From Gemmatimonadaceae bacterium (GTDB taxonomy: Bacteria; Gemmatimonadota; Gemmatimonadetes; Gemmatimonadales; Gemmatimonadaceae), in assembly GCA_051859245.1 (NCBI GenBank), contig JBHYGA010000001.1, forward strand, positions 864,001-928,000: a stretch of DNA of 64,000 bases, given 5' to 3'. Of the stretch, positions 37,665 to 45,730 are shown in pieces. Position numbers and translations under genes: made by a program. Under the pieces are notes generated by a model that saw only the letters and a program-made list of their open reading frames with translations, had not been told where the DNA came from and ran no database searches. Every line of letters begins with the position of its first letter. Position 1 is the first letter of the stretch.

Positions 37665-38747
37665 TTGTTCATGAACTCAACGCAGGCACCGGCGCGCCGA
37701 ACGCCGACTGACAACGCTGTCATTGAAGATCTGTTCTCGGTGCCGCGCGCTCGCGCAAAGGCGATTCGTGAACTCGAGCCGTTGCTGCGACCGGGAATCA
37801 CGGTGGCGCTGTCGACGCATCTCAATGCGGACGGCGACGGATGCGGTTCGGAAGCGGCACTGGCGCGGCTGTTGATGCAGCGCGGCATGAACGTGCGCAT
37901 CGTGAATCCCACGCCCTGGCCCACGTTGTTCAACTTTTTGTTGGGCAATGATGTTGAAGACGCGTCGCCTCGCGGCGCTGAGGCGCTGGAAGGCATCGAT
38001 CTGCTGTTGGTGCTGGATATCAACGATGTGCGCCGCCTTGGTGTGCTGGCCGACGCCGTTCGCGGGCTCACCGTGCCGATTGGCGTGATTGATCATCATG
38101 TCGCGGGTGACGAACCGGTTGGCCAGGTCACGTACGCGGATACCACCGCCTGTGCGACCGGCGAGCTGGTGTTTGATCTGGCGCGCGAGCTTGGGCTGGC
38201 GATCACGCCGGCGATTGCGGAGTCGCTGTACTGCGCCATTCTCACCGACACCGGTGGCTTTCGTTTCAGCAACACATCACCGCGCTGCCATGCCGTTGCG
38301 GCGGCGTTGCTGTCTGCGGGCGTGGCGCCGGAGTCGATGTACCGACTCATTTATGCGCAGGTCAAGCCGGCGCGACTGCACCTGCTTCGCGAAGCGCTGA
38401 GCACGCTGCAACTTGATCCGGAAATCGGGTTGAGCTGGATTACGCTCACGTACGATGTGGTGCACCGGCTCGGTGCGACCACCGATGACGTGGATGGTCT
38501 GGTTGAGCATCCACGATCGGTGGCCGGCACACGTCTGGCGCTGATGTTCCGCGATCTGGGGCACGGCAAGGTGAAGGTGTCGTTTCGCAGTACGGGGAAC
38601 ATCGACGCGCAGTTGTTGGCCAGACAGTTCGGCGGCGGCGGACATGTCAAGGCGTCGGGCGCACTGCTCGCCGGAACACTCGCCGAAACGGAAGCCAACG
38701 TGATTGCCGCCGCACGGGAATATCTCGCGAGTATTCCGCGAGCGTAA
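37665..38747 (+). CDS. DHH/DHHA1 phosphoesterase (NrnA-like oligoribonuclease/pAp phosphatase)
   Basis: HLNADGD, IDHH, TDTGGF, KVSFRS, GGGGH. Confidence 0.9.
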   Translation: MFMNSTQAPARRTPTDNAVIEDLFSVPRARAKAIRELEPLLRPGITVALSTHLNADGDGCGSEAALARLLMQRGMNVRIVNPTPWPTLFNFLLGNDVEDASPRGAEALEGIDLLLVLDINDVRRLGVLADAVRGLTVPIGVIDHHVAGDEPVGQVTYADTTACATGELVFDLARELGLAITPAIAESLYCAILTDTGGFRFSNTSPRCHAVAAALLSAGVAPESMYRLIYAQVKPARLHLLREALSTLQLDPEIGLSWITLTYDVVHRLGATTDDVDGLVEHPRSVAGTRLALMFRDLGHGKVKVSFRSTGNIDAQLLARQFGGGGHVKASGALLAGTLAETEANVIAAAREYLASIPRA

Positions 38748-38751
38748 CGCG

Positions 38752-39120
38752 CTACATCTCCTCCATGTCGCCCGGCGACTTGAAGTAGTTCTTGTACAGC
38801 GTCTTGGTGGTCTCGGTTTCGCACCCGTACCACGGGATCACGCCCACATACGGAAACGCTGGCAAGTAGTATCCTTTCCAGCTCCAGCCACAATCCGAGT
38901 ACGTGGTTTCTTCGCCGCAGACTTCAATCAAGCCAGCGCCGCACGGCGAGTAGTACATTTTGGTTTCGGATTGCGCGACCAGTTGCGACGCGAACGCACC
39001 TGTTGCCAGCAACGCCGCGAGCCCGATCAGCAACCGAGTATGCGCGCCCTTCGCTCGGCCTGCTGCGTTGGGTGACTGCCGGCGTGCTTTGGCGAGACGG
39101 GATGTTGTGGTAAGCATCAT
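38752..39120 (-). CDS. Small exported Cys-rich protein (paralog 2)
   Basis: GAGG RBS before ATGATG; hydrophobic signal segment; 4 Cys; clearly homologous to 40900-41292. Confidence 0.8.
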   Translation of the reverse strand: MMLTTTSRLAKARRQSPNAAGRAKGAHTRLLIGLAALLATGAFASQLVAQSETKMYYSPCGAGLIEVCGEETTYSDCGWSWKGYYLPAFPYVGVIPWYGCETETTKTLYKNYFKSPGDMEEM

Positions 39121-39162
39121 GACCTCACGAGAGAAAGAGTATAGGACGTATGCGAACATCGC

Positions 39163-40296
39163 TCAGCGCGACACGCTGTCGTTCGCGGTGATGCGGCGCC
39201 ACGCAACCAACTGCGGGGCAACCATGCTGTTGCGCATGGTGTAGAGCGTTCCGTTCGCGTACACCGCGTATTCGAGATCACGGTGTGGTGCTGGCCATGA
39301 CACGCGGTATCGTCCGAAGCGATCGAACAGGTCGAGTATCGGTTTGTCCGGGCCAGGTGCACCGCGAAACGTGATGAGCACGGTGTCATTCCAGGTGGAC
39401 CCTCGAGTGGCCGCCGACGTGCCACTCTCCATTTCGGTCCGCACCACTGGTTTTCCGTCTACCTGGCGCGATTGCGTGGTAAACGTTGGTGTCTCCAGCG
39501 CTTCGGCGTATGGCTGCAGTGTGAGTGCGCGAGCGTCGGCCGTGACGCCGCCGATGCCGTAACCGAACATGGTGAACACCGTACACGCATCACTGGCCTC
39601 GCCACGCGCAAACGCGGCGCTGGTGACCATGCTCGGCGCGGACGCGGGGAGTTCCACGGGAAACGCGAAGCGCGCGAGTGGTGAGGACTCACGACTGCGC
39701 GTGAGCCAGGCGCCGTTTCGTTGTGTTACGCCAACCAGTGAGCCGTCACGGAGCGCACAGATTGACGAGGCGTGCTGCTGCGGTCCGGGCTGCTGGTTCG
39801 CCAGCAAAGAACCACTCGGGGCAATCGTGGAAACGCGACCCAGTTGCACATCGAGTGCGAGGATGTTGCCCGCCGAGTCCATGGTGATATCGTTGATCTC
39901 CTGGAACTCACCGGGGCCAGCGCCTTTTCTGCCCACCGACCATCGCGTTTCTCCCGAACTGCGATCAAACGCGTGGATCTGCAGTGTCCCCTCATCCACG
40001 ATCACGACTCCATCCCGGTACGGAAGTGCGATTGGCACAACGGCGAACAACGCTTCTTCGCGCTTGCCACCGCGTGTCCACACCACCTGCCAGCCGGTGC
40101 TGTCGATCACGCGCTGTGATGGTGCTTGCCCGTTGAGCGAGGCCTGAATCAGCGCGTCACCTGGTGCGAGCGATGCGTCGGCAGGTGCGTCCGTTGCGGA
40201 GGAATTTTTCGCCGTTGTATCCGAACCTGCACAGCCAAACGCGGCGAACAGTGTGAGCAGCGCCAACGTGATCGAAGGGACACGATGCAGGCTCAT
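39163..40296 (-). CDS. Beta-propeller lipoprotein (6-bladed/NHL-like)
   Basis: Lipobox AFGC; GRKGAGPGEFQEINDITMDSAGNILALD blade motif; LDLFDRFGRY. Confidence 0.75.
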   Translation of the reverse strand: MSLHRVPSITLALLTLFAAFGCAGSDTTAKNSSATDAPADASLAPGDALIQASLNGQAPSQRVIDSTGWQVVWTRGGKREEALFAVVPIALPYRDGVVIVDEGTLQIHAFDRSSGETRWSVGRKGAGPGEFQEINDITMDSAGNILALDVQLGRVSTIAPSGSLLANQQPGPQQHASSICALRDGSLVGVTQRNGAWLTRSRESSPLARFAFPVELPASAPSMVTSAAFARGEASDACTVFTMFGYGIGGVTADARALTLQPYAEALETPTFTTQSRQVDGKPVVRTEMESGTSAATRGSTWNDTVLITFRGAPGPDKPILDLFDRFGRYRVSWPAPHRDLEYAVYANGTLYTMRNSMVAPQLVAWRRITANDSVSR

Positions 40297-40916
40297 GGCA
40301 CGGGGGGATTGGGGTTGTTGGTGACGAGTCGGGCAATGGCGGCGAGTTGTACGGTGCGTTCCACCGGACCTGGCGGAGAGGCGCCAGCATATCGAAGTCG
40401 GTGCTCCCCATCGAACAGCATGAGCGTTGGCGTGCTGCGATGACCGAGTGCGACCATGGTGCCGCGTTGCGCCGACGACAGTACGGCGAGTGTTGCATGT
40501 TGCAGGCTGCGCGGCAGTCGGTCGCGAAGCCCCACCGTGTCTGCAGCCAGGCCCTCCACCAGCAGCACGCGATGTGGCACGTGTGACGAGATCGACGGTC
40601 GCTCAAACAGCGCGAACACTCCGAGGTTGCCATCGCAGTCTTTGGCCTGCGCCACGATCACCGCCGTAAACGCGCGCGTTGAGTCTGCAGGTTGTACGGC
40701 GTCGAGCAATGTTGCCCCGGCCCCGCGACGCACCGTTGTAAAGCGCGCCGACATCAGCGTCGCCGAAAACATGGCCGCAATGAGCATGAGCAGCAGCGTG
40801 CCGATGCCGTCACCGATAGCGGAGTAGCGAGCCGCGTTACGCCGCATCGCCGAGGCCAAGGAACCGGGCGTCTTGCGACGCCCGTCCTCATGTGATGGGT
40901 CAGCACTCCGAGGCAT
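40293..40916 (-). CDS. Membrane-anchored protein with degenerate thioredoxin-like fold
   Basis: TM segment; beta strand then AKDCDGN (single Cys); STPTLMLFDGEHRLRY resembles the cis-Pro/beta-hairpin end of Trx folds; ATGA overlap with the next gene. Confidence 0.55.
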   Translation of the reverse strand: MPRSADPSHEDGRRKTPGSLASAMRRNAARYSAIGDGIGTLLLMLIAAMFSATLMSARFTTVRRGAGATLLDAVQPADSTRAFTAVIVAQAKDCDGNLGVFALFERPSISSHVPHRVLLVEGLAADTVGLRDRLPRSLQHATLAVLSSAQRGTMVALGHRSTPTLMLFDGEHRLRYAGASPPGPVERTVQLAAIARLVTNNPNPPVP

Positions 40917-41292
40917 ACTCTTCGTCGAGTCCGTCGCTCATATCCGTGCGACCCGGATTGGTCGCGTCTTTCGGCGCCCACTGGAAGCACACGCCAAGCT
41001 CCGTGCTGTTCTTGTCGTAGTTCTTGTACAGATTCTTGGTGGTGGTGCCCGTGCAGCTTTCACCCTCGTACTTGAATCCGAACACGCGGGCAATGATGCC
41101 AAGATCGATGCCCCACTTGTCGCTGCAGTTAGTGCCGGTGGTTTCGGAACCGCAGACTTCGAGCACGCCGTTGCCGCAGGTGGTGTAGATGATTTCGGGG
41201 CCGATTTCGTACGCACGCGCCGTGTTGGCGGCCATGGTGACAGCAAGAACAAGGGTGGCGGCGAGACCGCCGAACCAGGTGAGTCGGGTCAT
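40900..41292 (-). CDS. Small secreted Cys-rich protein (paralog 1)
   Basis: GAGAGGA RBS 7 nt before ATG; Sec signal ending ARA; 6 Cys; homologous to 38752-39120. Confidence 0.85.
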   Translation of the reverse strand: MTRLTWFGGLAATLVLAVTMAANTARAYEIGPEIIYTTCGNGVLEVCGSETTGTNCSDKWGIDLGIIARVFGFKYEGESCTGTTTKNLYKNYDKNSTELGVCFQWAPKDATNPGRTDMSDGLDEEYASEC

Positions 41293-41511
41293 GGAAGGGT
41301 CCTCTCAGGTGCTGCGAGGTAGTGAGCAGCGGCGGGAATCGTTCGCTGCGTCCAACGGGCCGCCCGGTCGGCCTGTTTGACTCGCGCAGTATGCGTGCGG
41401 TCTGTCATCCGCATGTCACCAAAACACCGCGCGTGTTATCACCAGCCCGCCGCCGCGCTGCGACTCACCGAGCTGCTTGGAGCTCCCGTCCGCGGGGACT
41501 AACTTTCGCGA

Positions 41512-42648
41512 ATGACTCAGACTCTTCAGGAACGCATTGCGACCGCCCTTCGGGGCGTGGCGCACCCGCGCAGCGGGACCGACGTGCTCTCCGCCGACGC
41601 CGTTCGCGATATTGGCACCACGACCGATGGCAAGGTCCGCCTGACCGTGCTCCTCGCGGCCGATGACGACGCCGAACTCGTGCGCGAAGTGCGCGACGCC
41701 GTGCAAAGCGTGAGCGGCGTGAGCGACGTACGTGTCGACGTGAAAGACCCGGCCCAGTTTGCCAAGTCACCGCCGCCGGAGCCAGCGCGTCCGGCCTCGC
41801 GATCGTTGCCGGTGATGGATGCCGCACCGGCCGCGCCGCGGAACGTGGCGCCGCCGCCGCAGGTGGCCTACCCGCAGCTCGGGCGAATCATTGCGGTGTC
41901 ATCGGGTAAGGGAGGCGTGGGCAAATCCACCATGGCCGTGAATCTTGCCATCGCGCTCGCGCAGCGCGGTGCACGGGTCGGCATTATGGACGCCGATGTG
42001 TACGGCCCCAATCTCCCACTCATGCTCGGCGTTGATCACGCGCCCGCTGTGCGTGACGAGAAAATCATTCCGCTCGAAGCACATGGCATCAAAGTGATGT
42101 CGATCGGTTTTCTCATCGAAAAAGAGCAGCCGGCGATCTGGCGCGGTCCCATCGTCATGAAAATCATCACGCAATTCCTGCGCGATGTCGCGTGGGGACA
42201 ACTCGACTATTTCCTGGTCGACATGCCACCTGGCACGGGAGACGCGCAGTTGTCGCTCGTGCAAGCGACGTCAGTGCACGGCGCAGTCATCGTCACTACG
42301 CCACAGCAAGTCGCGGTGGGTGACGCGTTGCGTGGTGTGAAAATGTTTGAGCGCACATCGGTACCGGTGCTTGGCATCATCGAAAACATGTCGTGGTTCG
42401 AAAACCCCGAAACGGGCAAGCCGATCGCGTTGTTCGGAACGGGCGGCGGGCAGCGTCTTGCCACCGAGACGGATCTTCCACTGCTCGGGCAAGTGCCGGT
42501 TGATCCGCGCATTCAGGAGGGCGGCGACACCGGACGGCCAATCATTGTGGCCGAGCCCGATTCGAAAGCGGCGCGTGCGATTCGATCGATCGCTGAAGCC
42601 GTCGTCTCGCGCATGGATGCGCGGTGGGGCGCGGTTGCAGGTGCGTAG
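41512..42648 (+). CDS. mrp: Mrp/NBP35 (ApbC) Fe-S carrier ATPase
   Basis: SGKGGVGKST, DADVYGP, WRGP, DMPPGTGD, VTTPQ, ENMS. Confidence 0.93.
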   Translation: MTQTLQERIATALRGVAHPRSGTDVLSADAVRDIGTTTDGKVRLTVLLAADDDAELVREVRDAVQSVSGVSDVRVDVKDPAQFAKSPPPEPARPASRSLPVMDAAPAAPRNVAPPPQVAYPQLGRIIAVSSGKGGVGKSTMAVNLAIALAQRGARVGIMDADVYGPNLPLMLGVDHAPAVRDEKIIPLEAHGIKVMSIGFLIEKEQPAIWRGPIVMKIITQFLRDVAWGQLDYFLVDMPPGTGDAQLSLVQATSVHGAVIVTTPQQVAVGDALRGVKMFERTSVPVLGIIENMSWFENPETGKPIALFGTGGGQRLATETDLPLLGQVPVDPRIQEGGDTGRPIIVAEPDSKAARAIRSIAEAVVSRMDARWGAVAGA

Positions 42649-43449: not shown

Positions 43450-44424
43450 CTACTTCACGCCGGCGTGTTGTTCCGCGGGCGTTGGACGGCGCGCCGCCAC
43501 AACGCCGCTCACAGGAGTCGGCGTGGACCAGTCCGGCTGCGGGGCTGGGGCGCCAGCGGCAACGCGTGCCGGAACAGCGTCGGGCACGCGCAGCCCGCCG
43601 CGCGACCGCACCACCGCGCCAATGCCAACGGTTGCCACAACCCAGCTGGACGCGAGCGCGATAATGCGCGTTGCCAAACCGGCGCCGGGCACGGCCACGA
43701 GCAACGCTGCCGCAAGCCACGGCAGCCAGATCAGGCCGTAGCCGAGAAGGAGCGCGCGAAGTAATCCCGCCCGAGTACGAGCGCGATCGTCGGCGGCGCG
43801 TGCACGGCCGATCACGGCGGCGACAGCCAGTGCGCCGAGCGTGCCCACGCCGGCAATGCCGAGCACGCTCAGAAAGAGCACGATAGGCACGATCAACAGG
43901 CCAATCACCGTGACCGCGAGCGCCAGCAGCATAGCGCCGATTAACGGCAGGGTTATCGTCTGTGCGAGCAGTCCGCGCCAGAACGCACCCGAAACATCGG
44001 CCTCAACCGTACGAATGATTCCTTCGAGCGGGCCAAGCGCGGTGACGAGCACGATGAGGGCGATGACGAGCCCGATGATCATCACGCCGCCCACCTGCGC
44101 CAGGGCGCTGCCCGTGCGGGCAGCCGCTGATTGCGGTGCACTCTCCGCGCCACCGCGACGCTTGGCGAGCAGCGAATCAATGCGCTCGGCCAGGCCCGGG
44201 GAAAACTGACGCGTTGCTTCGATGACTCTGGCGGCTACAAGCTGTGAGAGCGATCGCAGCGCCTCGCCCGGACTGAAAAGCGCGTCCGATGCCACGACGG
44301 CAACGCCAACCGCCTGCGCAGCGCTGCGTGACGATTGCGCGCTCACATCTCGCCCCGAAAGCACCAGCATTCCAACAAGAATGCCGAACAGACGCAGCGG
44401 TCGGAGCAAACGCCGCGTGAACAT
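43450..44424 (-). CDS. Hypothetical multi-pass membrane protein in the ECF operon
   Basis: Signal-like N-terminus and about 5-6 hydrophobic helices; start overlaps the anti-sigma stop. Confidence 0.7.
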   Translation of the reverse strand: MFTRRLLRPLRLFGILVGMLVLSGRDVSAQSSRSAAQAVGVAVVASDALFSPGEALRSLSQLVAARVIEATRQFSPGLAERIDSLLAKRRGGAESAPQSAAARTGSALAQVGGVMIIGLVIALIVLVTALGPLEGIIRTVEADVSGAFWRGLLAQTITLPLIGAMLLALAVTVIGLLIVPIVLFLSVLGIAGVGTLGALAVAAVIGRARAADDRARTRAGLLRALLLGYGLIWLPWLAAALLVAVPGAGLATRIIALASSWVVATVGIGAVVRSRGGLRVPDAVPARVAAGAPAPQPDWSTPTPVSGVVAARRPTPAEQHAGVK

Positions 44425-45011
44425 CAGGACTGCCGACTACGAGCCGTTGTGAGAGCCCGCAGTCCGGCCACGGCAGCGCCGGCCACCACAAGGAACCCCA
44501 CACCCGCTCCGAGCGCGACCATCGGCCCACCCGCGGCCCAAGCCTCGAGGCCGGTTTGTCCGACTGCGGCCAGAATGAGATCGGAAACAGCGGCGTTCGC
44601 AGACGCGCGGGCCTCTTCCAGACCAACGTTGGCCATCAACAAGCCGATGTCGGCCCGGTTGACCGCCCAGACGGCACCTGACACCAGCACGGCTGCGGAA
44701 GCCGCAGTGGCCAGACCGGCGGCGACCTGCGCAGGGCGGGTGGCCGGCACAAATCGAAGCACGCTATTTCGGGCGGCCACGTGCCACGGCTCAAACACCT
44801 GCACCTGACTCATGACGCGGTTCGTGAAATCGACAGAGGGCACGAAATGCGGCAGGTCTTCGAGGACCAGCAGCACGGCGCGCGCCTGTTCGAGTTCGCC
44901 CTGACATTCGAGGCACTCTTTCACGTGCTCCCGGAGGGGTTTCACGCCAAAGCCCACCTCGGTGTCGAGGAGAAGATCAATTTCGTCTGGTCGCAGGTGT
45001 CGTTCTAGCAT
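44424..45011 (-). CDS. Zinc-binding anti-sigma factor (ZAS, RsiW-like)
   Basis: H-x3-C-x2-C (HVKECLEC), FTNRVM, two TM helices; downstream of an ECF sigma gene. Confidence 0.82.
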   Translation of the reverse strand: MLERHLRPDEIDLLLDTEVGFGVKPLREHVKECLECQGELEQARAVLLVLEDLPHFVPSVDFTNRVMSQVQVFEPWHVAARNSVLRFVPATRPAQVAAGLATAASAAVLVSGAVWAVNRADIGLLMANVGLEEARASANAAVSDLILAAVGQTGLEAWAAGGPMVALGAGVGFLVVAGAAVAGLRALTTARSRQS

Positions 45012-45041
45012 TTATCTACCAAGTGAGGCTCCTTCGGGGCG

Positions 45042-45068
45042 TACGGCCCTGTCCGGCTGGCGGTTTCA
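45042..45068 (-). promoter_or_regulatory. Putative ECF (SigW/SigM-type) promoter upstream of the anti-sigma gene
   Basis: Minus strand TGAAAC-N17-CGTA. Confidence 0.55.
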
Positions 45069-45127
45069 CATCTGTTTCACAAAAAGTCCGGTGCCTCTAC
45101 GGCGAGACGTCCCGCGTGTAATTCCGG

Positions 45128-45730
45128 TCACTCATTGATCCCCTCAAGCGCACGCCGCAGCTCGTGGCGCGCCCGGTGGATGTAGGTCTTGACCGTTCCA
45201 AGGGGCAGGTCGAGCGTGGACGCAATTTCCTCGTAGGAACGACCTTCCACGTGCCGTAGCATGATGCAGGCGCGGTATTCCGGGCGCAGCAGGCCGATGG
45301 CGGATTCAATGGCGTCGCCAAGTTCGCGCGCCTCCATTTCGTCGAGCGCGCTTTCCTGATCCGAGGCAACGTCAAAGGTGGAGGCTTCCACCTCGGCGGC
45401 ACTCGACGCGTGTGGCGAACCATCCATGCTCACCGTGTCGAGGCGACGACGACGCAAATGGTCAATCGCGACGTTGTTGGCAATCTTGAACACCCAGCTC
45501 GAAAACTTGAACTCCGGGCTGTAGCGATCAATGTGGTTGAGCACTTTGATGAAGGCGTCCTGCGCCAGATCCTCGGCGGTTTCGCGGTCGCGCACCATGC
45601 GATACACCAGCGAGAACACTGGGCGTTCGTATCGGCGCACGAGTTCACGGAACGCGATTTCGCGCCCCTCCTGTGCGAGGCGTACGACATCCGCGTCCGG
45701 AAGCGAGACCAGCTGTTCGTTGGTAGGCAT
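45128..45730 (-). CDS. ECF RNA polymerase sigma factor (SigW-like)
   Basis: Region 2 AEDLAQDAFIK...FSSWVFKIANN.AIDHLR; region 4 SYEEIA..LDLPLGTVKTYIHRAR. Confidence 0.95.
   Translation of the reverse strand: MPTNEQLVSLPDADVVRLAQEGREIAFRELVRRYERPVFSLVYRMVRDRETAEDLAQDAFIKVLNHIDRYSPEFKFSSWVFKIANNVAIDHLRRRRLDTVSMDGSPHASSAAEVEASTFDVASDQESALDEMEARELGDAIESAIGLLRPEYRACIMLRHVEGRSYEEIASTLDLPLGTVKTYIHRARHELRRALEGINE

Follow-up and report, generated by a model that had tools for sequence, protein, structure and literature searches.

We found that a compact cassette of four genes, here called A, T, B and D, on the minus strand of a Gemmatimonadaceae genome is real, conserved and undescribed, and that the four genes very probably form one dedicated unit. 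The cassette lies in a stretch of 64,000 nucleotides from contig JBHYGA010000001.1 (the window, G000:C1:864001-928000, G000 being the window's genome). A and D encode small cysteine-containing proteins, T a thioredoxin-fold protein with one cysteine and B a beta-propeller lipoprotein. The reading we prefer, with a probability of about 0.4, is that of an inducible periplasmic module in which T would sort the disulfides of the peptides and B would bind their hairpins.

In this module an activator would switch on a single A-T-B-D transcript. After export, disulfides would clamp A and D into hairpin-shaped miniproteins, with the membrane-anchored, one-cysteine T forming transient mixed disulfides and so sorting their bonds, and B would bind the folded hairpins as a scaffold or carrier in the cell envelope. 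The end use would most plausibly be an envelope-stress response, with the hairpins pairing with a beta-strand partner at the outer membrane. We infer co-transcription, induction, the action of T on the peptides and their binding by B from the evidence given below.

Layout, selection and inheritance of the cassette

The window sequence and its open reading frame calls place four closely packed genes on the minus strand. Gene A (40900..41292) encodes a predicted Sec-exported miniprotein of 130 amino acids (aa) with six cysteines. It overlaps by 17 nt with gene T (40293..40916, 207 aa), which in turn overlaps by an ATGA with gene B (39163..40296, 377 aa). Gene D (38752..39117, 121 aa, four cysteines) encodes a predicted exported paralog of A; its first ATG, at 39159, would give 135 aa, but the ATG pair at 39117 lies behind a GAGG ribosome site and the resulting 121-aa start is also that of database protein P0002. 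Outside the unit, both on the plus strand, lie what we take to be a DHH-family phosphoesterase gene (37665..38747) and an mrp/ApbC-like ATPase gene (41512..42648), the latter divergent from the cassette. The earlier note had described a packed minus-strand four-gene unit between DHH and mrp, and this layout was borne out.

A, T, B and D are real genes under purifying selection. Compared with genome G202, dN/dS was 0.14 for A, 0.13 for T, 0.14 for B and 0.10 for D (0.01-0.03 for the flanking genes), and positive selection on the cassette was rejected on these values. By tree length over 13 genomes, the cassette genes evolve three to five times faster than DHH. A recent horizontal island was also rejected, as the GC content of the cassette is the same as that of its flanks and its dS values against G202 (0.6-1.6) are like theirs (0.84-0.88).

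Within the window's genus the peptide profile matched 8 of 15 genomes. The order A-T-B-D between mrp and DHH was found in six (G000, G202, G207, G209, G210 and G201, the cassette of the last being divided between two contigs), and a contig of G206 begins inside B and shows B-D-DHH. In G208 (L041:5746-5946) a clean deletion has left an intact promoter motif joined directly to what remains of D, its 3' half; G209, its sister in the DHH tree (support 100/100), has an intact cassette. DHH and mrp were adjacent in all five cassette-free genomes examined, out of seven non-carriers in the genus. Away from the mrp/DHH site, G206 has reversed B-T pairs (L142 and L144) with a QAAECT motif.

A search with the two-sequence A/D alignment gave no match in 200 other genomes, and a deeper peptide profile matched 18 of 401 family genomes. 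In a second genus, all eight matched genomes likewise have A-T-B between mrp and DHH but lack D, and the T profile added two more, bringing this arrangement to 10 genomes. D was confined to the window's genus among the genomes searched, and G089 has two shorter peptide genes together with T and B at another locus. The carriers include two complete single-contig genomes, G184 and G378. Searched exhaustively with a profile, 1.84 billion representatives yielded 11 proteins only, none informatively named, and no relative was found in a metagenome pattern scan. The dedicated peptide, thioredoxin-fold and propeller unit proposed in the earlier note therefore needs rewording: its genes are co-inherited, but the conserved core consists of the three genes A-T-B, with D as an extra copy.

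The trees of A, T and B unite the window's genus with G184 and G362 (support 0.80, 1.00 and 0.999), whereas the DHH and mrp trees put these two genomes with other members of their own genus. Because the A, T and B trees agree with one another and differ from those of DHH and mrp, the three genes seem to travel together, probably having been transferred or exchanged as one unit. Mantel distance correlations were tightest for T-B (0.81 overall, 0.88 within one genus) and reached 0.78 for A-B.

Across the phylum, the T profile matched 19 and then 38 of 401 genomes. At eight distant T loci, one or two small exported cysteine peptides lie directly upstream in six, and a scored propeller lies downstream in seven, the eighth having been judged by eye. 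The distant peptides share a scaffold of C1-x6/7-C2-x5/8-C3-loop-C4-x6/9-aromatic, with loops of 8 to 25 residues. An out-of-sample set was made up of 11 new T loci that had not been used in model building (10 weaker rows were left out). T had one cysteine in 11/11 of them, a peptide lay upstream in 7/11, a propeller was adjacent in 7/11 and all three were present in 5/11. Two of these loci retain peptide and T beside a membrane protein with the propeller missing, suggesting that T is tied to the peptide; at two others, one at a contig end, neither partner was detected. Homologs without the partner genes, which the earlier note had named as evidence against a dedicated system, do occur, but only in a minority of the distant loci.

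The encoded proteins and rival readings of their function

The active site of T reads QxxDCDGN, with a single cysteine instead of CxxC. This cysteine is invariant in 20/20 homologs, and the second cysteine is missing from all 20 aligned sequences and from 11/11 further ones. A conserved cis-Pro-loop position (TP) and a lone hydrophobic segment (residues 37-55), which would serve as an anchor, are also present. The AlphaFold2 model of T had a predicted local distance difference test (pLDDT) score of 85.7; Foldseek matched it to CcmG (E 1.3e-4) and also to DsbE and ResA (range 1e-4 to 2e-3), and VIA-align superposed it on DsbE (3gl3) with Z 10.2 and a root mean square deviation of 2.5 Å over 110 residues. 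As modelled, T is a TlpA/ResA/CcmG-type thioredoxin fold with a TlpA-type insertion and a membrane anchor, in keeping with the membrane-anchored thioredoxin-like protein that had been read from the sequence.

Thiol-disulfide exchange is the putative activity of T. Several oxidoreductases of the CcmG/ResA/DsbE/StoA/SdbA type serve dedicated substrates. These proteins share the fold and the membrane anchor of T (VIA Z 8-10), but they use CxxC, whereas T lacks the resolving cysteine and is only 7-18% identical to them. Within this fold, active sites with only the N-terminal cysteine (Cxxc) form an accepted catalytic class (PMC2757866). T defines a family of monothiol thioredoxin-fold proteins predicted to lie outside the cytoplasm.

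A different use of the same cysteine would be a split thiol relay like SOQ1 of Arabidopsis or human NHLRC2, in which the cysteine of T would be reactive, the peptides would resolve it or carry electrons, and B would form the substrate cleft, for reduction of peroxide, methionine sulfoxide or disulfides. Both SOQ1 and NHLRC2 have a TlpA-like fold beside a six-bladed NHL propeller and an atypical active site. T aligns to their thioredoxin-like domains (SOQ1 7djk, Z 8.8; NHLRC2 6gc1, Z 8.0; VIA-align) about as well as to ResA/CcmG, B is of NHL type, T-B is the tightest distance correlation, and an external partner for T is called for because the resolving cysteine is missing in all T homologs. 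In NHLRC2 the CCINC motif lies in the cleft between the TlpA-like domain and the six-bladed NHL propeller (PMC6107167, in part), and excerpts of 10.1101/2024.11.01.621559 describe a relay from the SOQ1 thioredoxin-like domain to a cysteine-pair domain with methionine sulfoxide reductase (Msr) activity. We nevertheless consider this relay unlikely. T has QxxDCxxN and not CC(I/V)NC, a DsbD/CcdA-type electron source is not in the block, and the peptides of the phylum, with hairpins of differing length and sequence and often present in duplicate, look more like products than like a fixed redox carrier. In every locus read, moreover, T and B are encoded separately and each has an export signal of its own, unlike the NHLRC2/SOQ1 fusions, and dedicated peptide genes are present here; the part of PMC6107167 that covers bacterial NHLRC2 homologs reports no conserved neighbours for them.

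The cysteine motif that the earlier note had seen in both A and D matched letter for letter, with loops of 23 and 22 aa. The two proteins are 40% identical (tblastn E about 1e-7; profile-profile 98.7%, E 2e-16). Both also contain the 15-mer noted before, at 41017..41031 in A and 38785..38799 in D (plus-strand positions, with the LYKNY codons on the minus strand), within a 33-nt repeat that is 88% identical between the copies. In the closest relative, the D copy of the 15-mer differs at two synonymous positions; since the 15-mer encodes LYKNY, these differences argue for constraint at the protein level. They also rule out the 15-mer as a sign of recent duplication or conversion, as does the phylogeny, where D forms a separate long-branched clade and is no fresh copy of the local A.

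A and D have a hydrophobic N-terminus and signal peptides ending in A-x-A (27 aligned peptides), suggesting that both are exported. In a few D proteins (G000, L001, P0003 and P0004; window 39117-39030) a basic N-terminal extension with RRQ[ST] precedes the signal peptide; it is missing from other D members and is not a canonical Tat motif. The cysteines of A are C39, C47, C56, C80, C102 and C130, and the candidate pairing is C1-C2, C3-C4 and C5-C6. The AlphaFold2 model of A (pLDDT 54) has strands at 45-65 and 70-90, predicting a long beta-hairpin clamped by C56-C80, and the C3-C4 loop measures 21-24 residues in 30/30 A/D sequences. Compared with D, A bears two additional cysteines and an acidic tail; D lacks the tail and has a hairpin rich in proline and aromatic residues.

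No Pfam family matched A or D, nor did any NCBIfam family match A, in line with the earlier note, which recognised no named family for the two proteins. None of 27 peptides matched NVEALA (PF14055) at E<=0.1, nor did this family match anything in the window's genome at E<=1. In the comparison with pore-forming domains, PF18063 was touched by one of the 27 (E 0.064). Foldseek with the low-confidence A model found no match at E<=0.001 (best VIA Z 2.3), and neither the T profile nor the peptide profile had a significant match among PDB sequences. Language-model neighbours of A in the ESM Atlas were outer-membrane barrel fragments (scores 0.82-0.88, a lead only), and D had no usable match there.

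The fixed C3-C4 loop of 21-24 residues is enough for two membrane-spanning strands, and A and D could on this ground form very small beta-pores or act on membranes as antibacterial hairpins, matured by T, with B as an immunity protein or anti-aggregation chaperone. Of 21 A-type loops, 7 alternate in hydrophobicity at p<0.05, counted over related sequences and uncorrected, which points the same way, as do the low-scoring barrel-fragment neighbours, the patchy presence of the cassette and its exchange as a unit. We think this improbable. Only one of nine D-type loops shows the alternation, D-type loops are proline-rich, and distant peptides have loops of 8 residues; mature A is acidic (-7) with hairpin loops near neutral; selection is purifying and not diversifying; and the block encodes neither a double-glycine leader nor an export gene for the outer membrane, such as a peptidase ABC exporter. 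Double-glycine-leader bacteriocins differ in the same respect, as the 27 aligned peptides carry A-x-A signal peptides and an exporter is not in the block. No more probable, in our judgement, is a bolder version in which the monothiol redoxin clamps hairpins of variable length, the propeller chaperones them and those of 21-24 residues oligomerise into an outer-membrane pore or plug. If true, it would make this a phylum-wide, undescribed secretion-and-display system whose beta-barrel pore or plug would rank among the smallest known.

B scored 28.6 bits against Pfam DUF5128 (PF17170; gathering cut-off 22.9), a family matched by 15 of 20 B homologs, and the B profile found the NHL domains of Thin, TRIM3 and TRIM71 (E 1e-32 to 1e-36), as expected for a six-bladed propeller. 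A lipobox, AFGC (C22), and one conserved internal cysteine pair are present. The propeller lipoprotein of the earlier note was thus confirmed. The lipobox is found in B of the window's genus and, by a lipobox scan, is missing from 9 of the 10 B proteins of the second genus (the pattern overlooked the TFGC variant of L001); over the two genera this is consistent with periplasmic action. PAL-type lyases have histidine ligands. B was rejected as such a lyase: it gave a weak PAM match (E 6.5e-4), but no histidine is invariant over 20 homologs.

About 45 DUF5128/NHL-like propeller genes occur genome-wide in G000, many of them clustered, and only B has both T and this peptide family as neighbours (1/45), which rules out a chance neighbourhood with one of many propellers. 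A crude filter picked up two unrelated small cysteine reading frames near other G000 propellers. Clusters lie for example at C1:431557-451826, C4:113605-117265 and C4:339877-344387, and almost none of the propeller genes has a peptide or redoxin gene beside it. The paralog nearest to B (E 2.6e-26; G000:C8:64563-65792, plus strand) is a lone propeller lipoprotein of lower GC at third codon positions, inserted between housekeeping genes, where T or a peptide gene was not detected.

The hairpin tips differ between lineages on a scaffold that stays constant, and they co-evolve with B (the A-B correlation above), as might also be seen if the peptides were cell-to-cell signals with B as their receptor. 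This we regard as very improbable indeed: the block has no kinase, sigma/anti-sigma pair or transporter, and B has no membrane-spanning signalling part. A complex prediction for B (58-372) with A (28-130), with alignments as input, scored 0.01 and was used neither for nor against binding.

The upstream element and the weight of the evidence

A promoter-like element (41388..41420, minus strand) precedes the cassette, with a GG-TGAC-N7-TGAC direct repeat of 11-bp period (41420-41404), then 10 nt, then a -10-like CATACT hexamer (41393-41388); it is a predicted activator site. The second TGAC is exact in 12 of 15 relatives, and an N-A-T-N-N-T hexamer at equal spacing is found in 15/15, in both genera. 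The motif is missing at the five cassette-free sites compared, and no canonical sigma-70 -35/-10 pair was found upstream of the cassette. Sites of OmpR/PhoB-type activators are laid out in this way, with an 11-bp direct repeat placed 10 nt ahead of a -10 box, and direct repeats of this period are preferred by the OmpR family. A matrix trained on the relatives scored the cassette's own site at 32.7 and the next best site in the genome at 21.0, and a regulon for the motif was rejected for want of a convincing second site.

Between this element and A lies a conserved 5' leader (41326..41373, minus strand), with a GGCCGACCGGGCGG box and a candidate GCAGCG...CGCTGC stem before the ribosome site, seen in an alignment of seven upstream regions of the genus. 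A structured leader RNA was not supported (folding z-score -1.5; 12 of 200 shuffles were as good).

Small, acidic, cysteine-rich proteins with signal peptides behind such a repeat could also be metal buffers like the bufferins, switched on through a two-component system when copper or another metal causes stress, with T keeping or sorting their thiols. Bufferins are signal-peptide ribosomally synthesised and post-translationally modified peptides that protect from copper, and they too are small cysteine proteins in compact stress clusters (both from part of the text of PMC11626156). They are, however, modified by MNIO enzymes, and no MNIO/DUF692 enzyme is among the block's four genes, which has a propeller and a monothiol redoxin instead. 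Even cysteine counts and hairpin-compatible spacing point to disulfides, and no conserved histidine or methionine was found in the peptides. We therefore give metal buffering little credence.

Several findings weigh against the periplasmic module that we prefer. Seven of the 15 genomes of the genus have no peptide match and G208 has only a relic, so the block is dispensable. In G351 a peptide gene faces part of a propeller gene on a contig of 1.5 kb, yet T had no match anywhere in that genome, and no peptide was detected within 1.5 kb of the reversed B-T pairs of G206. Among the out-of-sample T loci, 4/11 have no upstream peptide and 4/11 no adjacent propeller. The peptide model is of low confidence (pLDDT 54), the genome holds no convincing second site for the promoter motif, and the single cysteine of T could equally act as a peroxidase or in a relay.

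Related systems and neighbouring observations

In Bacteroidota, small NVEALA (PF14055) proteins, DUF5128 (PF17170) propellers and TlpA-like proteins are neighbours. The cassette would work as a dedicated cluster of peptide and oxidoreductase genes, and it resembles these neighbourhoods in combining a small exported cysteine protein, a DUF5128 propeller and a thioredoxin-fold partner. It differs in that A and D fail PF14055, T has one cysteine and not CxxC, the host is a member of the Gemmatimonadota and the block has no C39 exporter or signal peptidase gene. No description of the cassette, of NVEALA or of DUF5128 was found in open-access papers. DUF5128 propellers are abundant and unexplained, and this locus singles out a subfamily with fixed peptide and redoxin partners. 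The conserved promoter motif, the natural deletion and the two-versus-one peptide variants make the joint function of propeller and peptide testable, and the peptides would amount to a natural collection of hairpins, all clamped by disulfides and built on a single scaffold.

Some distant loci have further genes nearby, whose names we assume from motifs. At one of them, a presumably DsbA-like gene with CPWC (L101:1158-1931) follows the propeller, which we count in favour of the periplasmic module. At L103 (7391-11059, 4386-5516), what we take to be ABC ATPase and membrane genes follow the cassette and a presumed AraC-like gene precedes it. L136:2825-4240 and L137:2755-4189 hold peptide, T and a small membrane protein, with the propeller missing, behind a gene that is presumably cation-exchanger-like. 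At L132 (G594), a frameshift or a sequencing error has broken T into two reading frames, and it lies between a peptide gene and a propeller gene that are both intact. In the window itself, a presumed extracytoplasmic function (ECF) sigma factor-like gene (45128-45730, minus strand) lies 3-4 kb from the cassette, within a minus-strand segment (44424-45730) in which it is followed by what we take to be an anti-sigma membrane protein.

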